A stretch of 32,000 nt of DNA from Chitinilyticum litopenaei DSM 21440 (GCF_000428145.1 NZ_ATZJ01000007.1:24859-56858), one strand, 5' to 3'. Counted from the first letter of the stretch, positions 22,403-22,430 are shown. Notes: generated by a model not told the origin, from the letters alone. Made by a program: numbers and translations.

Positions 22403-22430
22403 ACTTAACATAATATACATTATGCGATGT
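22403..22430 (-). other. dif: Chromosome dimer resolution site dif (XerC/XerD target), prophage right junction
   Basis: The minus strand reads ACATCGCATAA|TGTATA|TTATGTTAAGT. Against E. coli dif (GGTGCGCATAA|TGTATA|TTATGTTAAAT) it matches 23/28: XerC arm 7/11 (all inner positions), central hexamer 6/6, XerD arm 10/11. Confidence 0.8.

Follow-up and report, generated by a model that had tools for sequence, protein, structure and literature searches.

The resolution of chromosome dimers at dif begins when XerC and XerD are bound to the two arms of the site and XerD is activated by FtsK. In the Xanthomonas phages phiLf, Cf1c and XacF1 the attP core is made up of the XerC arm and the central region, a sequence of 15 bp (TATACATTATGCGAA), and TLCphi, an IMEX, reportedly alters the active dif, an observation attributed to Hassan et al. 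in 2010. For an attP devoid of the XerC arm, we know of no experimental test of the mechanism. IMEXs carry a dif-like attP, are integrated by XerC and XerD, and regenerate dif at one of their two junctions (PMC4246890; PMC12715192). The CTX-I inoviruses and the PM2-like dif phages share a module comprising an RstR/P16 repressor, a dif-like attP and XafT/P15, with an attP that is either full-length or a one-armed site of 17 bp (PMC12715192). XafT of TLCphi, which combines an XRE-type HTH with DUF3653, acts on XerD, to which it binds and which it activates in an FtsK-independent manner, and most genes encoding DUF3653 proteins adjoin dif (PMC6744903). PSB15, the DUF3653 protein of the Xanthomonas phages, binds a packaging signal, or hairpin, and is dispensable for integration (bioRxiv 10.1101/2024.03.19.585677).

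The DNA analysed here, a window of 32 kb from Chitinilyticum litopenaei, contains on the minus strand, at 22403-22430, a 28-mer (ACATCGCATAATGTATATTATGTTAAGT) that had been put forward in the original prediction as a bona fide-looking chromosomal dif. The sequence reads exactly as it had been quoted and has the organization of the E. coli site, with an 11-bp XerC arm (ACATCGCATAA, 22430-22420), a 6-bp central region (TGTATA, 22419-22414) and an 11-bp XerD arm (TTATGTTAAGT, 22413-22403). Compared with E. coli dif, which we take to be GGTGCGCATAA-TGTATA-TTATGTTAAAT, it is identical at 23 of the 28 positions (7/11 in the XerC arm, 6/6 in the central region and 10/11 in the XerD arm), the mismatches being the four outer bases of the XerC arm and position 27; on recounting, the agreement claimed for the inner XerC arm, the central region and the XerD arm was thus reproduced. 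When up to three mismatches were allowed, the 28-mer and the 23-base dif core each matched the window once and 100 dinucleotide-preserving shuffles not at all, which rules out chance. The window holds no complete dif-like site other than that at 22403-22430, in addition to one half site. A minus-strand ORF and adhE are separated here by 270 bp, and the complete site falls in this interval; similarly to E. coli dif, it occupies an intergenic position where strand-polarity signals converge. Judged by its sequence, its conservation and its context, the 28-mer is a genuine dif of the XerC/XerD type, as had been proposed. It is however not pristine: it is an attR junction in which the central region and the XerD arm are those of a phage attP, so that, on the sequence comparisons given below, the complete dif is a hybrid rebuilt by a filamentous phage and half of it is phage DNA. 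The reading that we favour, and consider quite probable, is that the 28-mer is the current dif of the chromosome, situated at or near the terminus and remade by an integrase-less filamentous phage of 8.3 kb inserted through the Xer recombinases.

The half site, which was absent from the original prediction, lies on the minus strand at 14079-14106 (TGTACCGAAAC-TGTATA-TTATGTAAAGT). It consists of a non-consensus 11-mer of phage coding sequence (TGTACCGAAAC, 14106-14096), a perfect central region (TGTATA, 14095-14090) and a good XerD arm (TTATGTAAAGT, 14089-14079), with only 3/11 matches at the position of the XerC arm. The two sites are co-oriented, both on the minus strand, and bound a block of low GC content (0.52 vs 0.60-0.64 in the flanks). 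The integrated prophage occupies 14096-22419 (8.3 kb), the crossover falling somewhere within the shared TGTATA, which makes the half site attL and the complete site attR. Searches with Pfam and PHROG found no integrase, transposase or other recombinase in the prophage, and no leftover ORF stands as a candidate; nor is there any further dif-like site, direct or inverted, inside it. Since no internal dif-like site was found, the block is a single element, neither a tandem array nor a CTXphi-type folded hairpin attP; a tandem IMEX array was considered and rejected on that ground. An element without integrase lies here between co-oriented dif-like sites, one of them complete, and by these sequence features it conforms to the definition of an IMEX. 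Megablast of the whole prophage against GenBank phages gave no match, and a Zot-based scan of IMG/VR returned no relative. Neither AdhE nor the 146-aa product of the window had an identical entry when looked up by exact sequence.

The block carries a complete filamentous-phage gene set, as assessed with Pfam and PHROG. The first gene encodes an RstR/P16-like HTH repressor (14082-14477, minus strand; PHROG 638/4441) with a 3' end encoded across attL. The plus-strand genes that come next encode a gV-like ssDNA-binding protein (14547-14864; PHROG 8473, E = 4e-22), a gII-like rolling-circle replication initiator (14928-16286; Pfam Phage_CRI, E = 6e-11; PHROG 702, E = 1e-42), which has distant matches to inovirus replication proteins, and a gVIII-like major coat protein (16554-16859; PHROG 6548, E = 4e-20). 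The product of 16958-18271 (plus strand) matches PHROG 4352 (E = 2e-12), a family of unknown function, and is a probable adsorption protein, gIII-like by its place in the gene order. A gVI-like minor coat protein (18276-18626; PHROG 974, E = 4e-17) and a Zot/gI-like assembly ATPase (18697-19899; Pfam Zot, E = 1.5e-30; PHROG 197, E = 4e-74), both on the plus strand, complete the set. From zot to the terminal gene there is a variable cargo of 1.9 kb (19966-21852), which agrees in position and size with the 'pHVR' of CTX-I inoviruses (PMC12715192) and holds a KfrA_N-domain coiled-coil protein (19966-21141, minus strand; Pfam) and a 170-aa ORF without assigned function (21340-21852, plus strand). 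Within the KfrA_N coiled-coil gene, a stretch of about 306 nt is tandemly duplicated (20015-20282 vs 20321-20588, 78% identity). The terminal gene (21869-22312, minus strand) encodes a protein of 147 aa in which an XRE-like HTH is combined with a beta-hairpin and a long helix, a candidate XafT/P15-like (DUF3653-like) factor; its start is most likely the ATG at 22312, with GGAGGA just before it.

This layout is that of the CTX-I and PM2-like elements (PMC12715192), which likewise are devoid of integrase, begin with the repressor gene and end with a small HTH/DUF3653-type gene, keep attP between these two genes on the same strand, and place a cargo of about 1.9 kb after zot; in the window prophage, too, an rstR-type gene and a candidate xafT-type gene form the two ends, with the cargo from zot to the latter. 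Also shared are the 17-bp 'left-armed' attP, made up of the XerD arm and the central region, and the regeneration of a full dif at one junction. Three differences were noted. The described elements belong to Vibrio and Pseudoalteromonas, whereas the host of the Chitinilyticum prophage is a betaproteobacterium (Chitinibacteraceae); the Chitinilyticum terminal protein is linked to DUF3653 by a weak profile match and not by Pfam; and its attP lies within the repressor coding sequence, with the consequence that integration shortens the repressor.

The assignment of the halves of each junction to host and phage relied on related chromosomes and on free phages. In a scan based on AdhE the window fell within the Chitinibacteraceae, its AdhE having 94% amino acid identity to that of Chitinibacter tainanensis. 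The loci compared were those of C. tainanensis (L001), a MAG (L002), an uncultured Deefgea (L131) and three unintegrated phage contigs (L135-L137). The dif of C. tainanensis, AATGCGCATAATGTATATTATGTAAAGT (AATGCGCATAA-TGTATA-TTATGTAAAGT), lies 215 bp upstream of adhE and is oriented as in the window, and the MAG has ACTTCGCATAATGTATATTATGTAAAGT (ACTTCGCATAA-TGTATA-TTATGTAAAGT) upstream of adhE. Because the dif of both carries TTATGTAAAGT, this is taken as the native XerD arm, which in the window is the arm of the half site, at 14079-14089 and 8.3 kb away from the complete dif; a metagenome scan for CATCGCATAATGTATATTATGTWAAGT returned seven contigs, with CATCGCATAA-TGTATA, and all of them (7/7) have the same A variant. 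The MAG has in addition a second good dif-like site at 9263-9290 on the plus strand (ATTTCGTATAT-TGTATA-TTATGTAAAGT), which lies 4.8 kb from the dif upstream of adhE and has the opposite orientation, so that the pair flanks adhE; Xer integration does not yield inverted sites, and this copy may be an assembly artefact or an inversion.

Four close homologues of the 147-aa terminal protein were found, three of them on inovirus contigs of 4-6 kb without chromosomal flanks. Each of the free contigs L135-L137 has one site, flanked by the repressor and by the 147-aa gene homologue, in which a non-consensus 11-mer is joined to TGTATA-TTATGTTAAGT. The 11-mers are TGTACTGAGTC, TGTCACCAGAC and TGTTCCGAAAC, each followed by TGTATATTATGTTAAGT, and TGTTCCGAAAC, from L137, is one base off the 11-mer of the left junction of the window (TGTACCGAAAC). 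These contigs are relatives of the window phage, with 50-55% identity in the terminal protein, and represent other phages. The two prophage ends were then joined in silico, the reverse complement of 14096-14477 to the reverse complement of 21869-22419. The joined sequence aligns with L135-L137 without gaps across the junction. All four share 21 identical bases (CTGTATATTATGTTAAGTAAA), and the reading frame of the repressor (...LYIMLSK...) runs through attP and is conserved in the joined ends and in the three contigs. In these relatives, the free form carries the attP predicted from the recombination of both junctions. Since the relatives, the free contigs and the reconstruction agree, the central region and XerD arm of the complete dif are assigned to the phage attP, the XerD arm being identical to that of attP. 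This also bears on the 10/11 match of the XerD arm with E. coli that was put forward in the original prediction; the count is correct, but the arm it describes is the phage's, because the XerD arm of the 28-mer is the attP arm, and the native arm agrees with E. coli at 9/11 positions. The topology is also consistent, since, when a circle enters dif, the host XerC arm stays beside adhE, where it lies in the relatives, and the host XerD arm comes to lie at the far junction. On these comparisons only the XerC arm of the complete dif (22420-22430) is certainly chromosomal, and the ancestral dif would have been ACATCGCATAA-TGTATA-TTATGTAAAGT. The site differs in this respect from E. coli dif, its XerD half having been swapped for phage sequence. 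It could be argued that the 28-mer is the unaltered ancestral dif, which has both arms and a consensus central region and occupies the place where relatives also have a dif, and that the prophage arrived by a mechanism in which the 28-mer took no part. Such an account is extremely improbable, given the co-oriented half site with an identical central region at the other end of the prophage, the absence of an integrase, and a XerD arm that is that of the free phage attP and not that of the related chromosomes.

The arrangement is not confined to the window. In the uncultured Deefgea the order is adhE, full dif (TAATCGCATAA-TGTATA-TTATGTTAAGT), a 148-aa gene, an inovirus, the repressor and a half site (AATATTCTCTT-TGTATA-TTATGTTAAGT), and the inovirus has a different replication protein (Rep_trans). 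As this layout matches that of the window, both the linkage of dif to adhE and the type of element are common to several genera of Chitinibacteraceae. An exact search of IMG/VR with the 17-mer TGTATATTATGTTAAGT returned 50 contigs (L081-L130), many of 4-12 kb, in nearly all of which the position of the XerC arm is non-consensus and among which several families with conserved flanks can be distinguished; an attP with the XerD arm only may be widespread among small ssDNA phages, part of the 17-mer matches possibly being due to chance. A prophage-free site of the same species was not found. Relatives of the left flank (Chitinilyticum, with patatin homologues of 58-60% identity) have no dif within 10 kb, and for that reason an empty left junction was not obtained.

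The chromosomal genes around the prophage bear on the location of the terminus. The left flank comprises mfd, GGDEF/EAL, SpoU and patatin genes, the nearest being that of a patatin/Omp85 protein (11645-13936, plus strand; Pfam PF01734, PF01103), and the right flank comprises adhE (22589-25216, plus strand), which starts 159 bp from the XerC arm, followed by pyk, leuB, leuD and leuC; re-annotation of the flanks bore out the gene calls made earlier for mfd, adhE, pyk and leuBCD. The order mfd-GGDEF/EAL-SpoU-patatin is syntenic with Chitinilyticum aquatile, where there is no dif nearby. On the right, the dif-adhE linkage is all that is in common with Chitinibacter and Deefgea, and synteny with C. 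tainanensis at the DNA level extends over adhE only. In Chromobacterium, mfd is found about 8 kb downstream of adhE. The GC content also differs between the flanks (0.636 left vs 0.600 right), and the terminus region looks like the breakpoint of a rearrangement. In all three of the chromosomal loci compared (L001, L002 and L131) dif is conserved at the orthologous position, upstream of adhE and in the same orientation.

According to the original prediction the window spans the replication terminus, with a maximum of cumulative GC skew over the whole replicon expected at about the site. Before any excision, the cumulative G-C curve of the window peaks at 13,621, about 13.6 kb and not 22.4 kb, because the prophage itself is strongly negative in skew (-0.085, compared with +0.011 to its left and -0.024 to its right). 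After in-silico excision of the prophage, the maximum falls 474 bp from the rebuilt dif. The skew at third codon positions mostly follows gene strand and is uninformative on the terminus, so that the skew is compatible with a terminus but weak. The octamer GGGNAGGG, which is the KOPS motif of E. coli and is assumed to be valid in Chitinilyticum, points toward dif in 7 of 8 occurrences in the window and in 12 of 13 over the window, L001, L002 and L131 (binomial p = 0.0017). The case for the terminus is carried mainly by dif itself, its conservation and a few KOPS counts, as the skew is weak and tracks gene strand. The locus is likely at or near the replication terminus; the conserved position of dif, the housekeeping flanks, the convergence of KOPS-like motifs and a compatible skew speak for the earlier proposal, of which 32 kb with a weak skew cannot be a proof. 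xerC, xerD and ftsK are not in the 32-kb window. It is also conceivable that the site is a mere prophage junction or secondary dif-like site and that the functional dif and the terminus lie elsewhere, as the local GC skew is weak, with gene orientation as a confounder, the data cover 32 kb of the replicon and IMEX arrays can leave several dif-like sites. We regard this as unlikely, considering that IMEXs integrate by definition at the functional dif (PMC4246890, PMC12715192), that three other genomes keep dif linked to adhE, and that KOPS-like motifs converge on the site and the flanks consist of housekeeping genes.

A way in which the phage enters the chromosome may be proposed from these sites. 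The attP would consist only of the dif central region and the XerD arm (TGTATA-TTATGTTAAGT), with repressor coding sequence in place of the XerC arm, and Xer recombination would put the 8.3-kb phage into the ancestral dif ACATCGCATAA-TGTATA-TTATGTAAAGT. In this reaction XerD would bind the attP arm and be activated independently of FtsK, possibly by the terminal protein acting in the manner of TLCphi XafT; the first strand exchange would then be made with dif, and the Holliday junction would be completed by XerC or by replication. At 22403-22430 (attR) the host XerC arm and the phage XerD half would thereby form a complete and usable dif; the half site at 14079-14106 (attL) would unite the host XerD arm with the non-consensus 11-mer of the phage, and its poor XerC side would limit excision. 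The rebuilt dif would serve in dimer resolution and remain open to further IMEX capture, both of which had been suggested beforehand and are supported by this reading. CTXphi-type integration, in which attP is a folded ssDNA hairpin of two inverted dif-like sites instead of a one-armed dsDNA site, also comes to mind, since the phage is filamentous, its assembly protein is of the Zot type and its repressor is RstR-like. This route is very unlikely here: no inverted dif-like copy is present in the prophage, whether as many as 10 mismatches are allowed against the 28-mer or 3 against the XerD half, and the free contigs have none either; the unintegrated contigs have a single attP, and the central region is fully identical to that of dif.

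A one-armed double-stranded attP, the preferred reading, can be compared with other described systems. TLCphi of Vibrio cholerae (PMC6744903, PMC9226527) also has an attP that is double-stranded, in which one arm is degenerate and the central region does not differ from that of dif. It encodes an HTH and DUF3653-type protein beside attP, and alters the active dif of its host on integration; its degenerate arm is however the XerD arm, and that of the Chitinilyticum prophage the XerC arm. The gonococcal genetic island (GGI) of Neisseria, the other IMEX of the Neisseriales, has in common with the prophage a deviant site thought to limit excision, but it spans 57 kb, is not a phage, deviates in the XerD arm and has no XafT-like gene. 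The phages phiLf, Cf1c and XacF1 of Xanthomonas are similarly inoviruses that lack an integrase, occupy dif and have a DUF3653 gene close to attP, whereas their DUF3653 protein, PSB15, acts in packaging. The Chitinilyticum attP is the mirror image of those of TLCphi and the GGI, and fits the 'left-armed' class reported in 2025 for Vibrio phages (PMC12715192). IMEX capture at dif is already known, as is the alteration of the active dif by an IMEX (TLCphi); what is new is the host family, in which events of this kind had not been described, and modest additions are an attP inside the repressor coding sequence and a candidate activator family too divergent for Pfam.

The nature of the terminal 147-aa protein was addressed by several approaches. 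Direct searches with Pfam and PHROG gave no match, tblastn against phages gave only noise, and hhalign with a five-sequence profile of the family returned nothing. A library-wide profile search then identified about 30 relatives; 2 of the 33 family members match Pfam DUF3653, weakly (E about 1e-3), and in hhalign the family profile matches PM2 P15 (DUF3653) with a probability of 68% (E = 4.6e-5) over 50 columns, also a weak match. AF2 produced a poor model from 5 sequences (pLDDT 54) and, with 33 sequences, one of pLDDT 93, predicting an XRE-like HTH, a beta-hairpin with a W/F-G-x-[FW] motif and a long helix. Foldseek searches of BFVD and PDB gave nothing significant, only generic XRE-HTH similarity at E > 1e-3. 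The modelled beta-hairpin resembles the DUF3653 hairpin described for PSB15 (bioRxiv 10.1101/2024.03.19.585677). In six loci with different phage cores the gene is always terminal and adjoins attP or dif. From profile, model and position the protein is a candidate XafT/P15-like factor.

Between attR and the terminal gene, the minus strand encodes two stable hairpins (22321-22385; RNA fold -37.6 kcal/mol, z = -5.2), the second of which was missed by a terminator scan and shown by folding. The second hairpin is likely the terminator of the repressor transcript, because a T-run (UUUGUCAUUUU) comes directly after it, and an equivalent hairpin with a T-run is found at the same place in L135-L137. 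The hairpins, which adjoin the DUF3653-like gene, could also act as a signal for packaging or as an origin. Another role considered for the 147-aa protein is that of a transcription regulator or packaging-signal binder, integration then being carried out by FtsK-activated or unaided XerCD. Two strong hairpins just upstream of the gene, the weak similarity to DUF3653, the XRE-type HTH of the N-terminal domain, and the precedent of PSB15, which binds the packaging hairpin and can be dispensed with in integration (bioRxiv 10.1101/2024.03.19.585677), all favour such a role, and a packaging function like that of PSB15 would be a serious rival to an integration function. The terminal position beside attP or dif in the six loci, which is also the position of xafT/p15 in the described IMEXs (PMC12715192), and the proximity of most DUF3653 genes to dif (PMC6744903) weigh against it, and we consider a packaging or regulatory role a real possibility, somewhat short of even chances.

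Integration through an attP of this kind would rewrite the phage repressor. Taking the stretch with the repressor gene and the host XerD arm (14079-14477, minus strand) together with the reconstructed attP, it can be seen that attP lies inside the 3' coding end. The repressors of the free relatives have 160-176 aa, with a basic tail after ...LYIMLSK, and the integrated repressor has 131 aa and ends in ...LYIM, its TAA stop coming from the host XerD arm TTATGTAAAGT. Because attP is in coding sequence and the host arm supplies the stop, integration changes and shortens the protein. In the reconstructed window phage the free-form repressor ORF continues in frame into the 147-aa gene (309 aa); such a fusion as a designed feature was rejected, since the relatives have a stop about 30 codons after attP. 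It is tempting, although doubtful, to propose for these Chitinibacteraceae inoviruses an uncharacterised route of Xer hijacking that would unite an attP without XerC arm, a divergent factor, the replacement of the host XerD arm, the removal of the repressor tail and a lysogeny switch. If true, integration would remove the basic C-terminal tail of the repressor, the integrated and the free phage would make different repressors, which would amount to a built-in lysogeny switch, and an HTH and DUF3653-like factor outside Pfam detection would take part.

The locus provides a little-studied family of chitin-degrading betaproteobacteria with its dif and its probable terminus, and does not overturn current understanding. 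A dif of textbook appearance can be half phage, and therefore a consensus drawn from IMEX-occupied genomes mixes host and phage arms. The locus also offers, outside Vibrio, a clean natural case of an attP formed by the XerD arm and the central region alone, for which the native site, the two junctions and the attP of the phage can all be retrieved; a small family of about 30 proteins supplies candidates for a Xer activation factor. As a minor observation, the terminal gene can be extended mechanically to an ORF of 183 aa (21869-22420, minus strand), with an ATG formed at the junction of the XerC arm and the central region of dif, and an automatic gene caller could misannotate it as a CDS overlapping dif.
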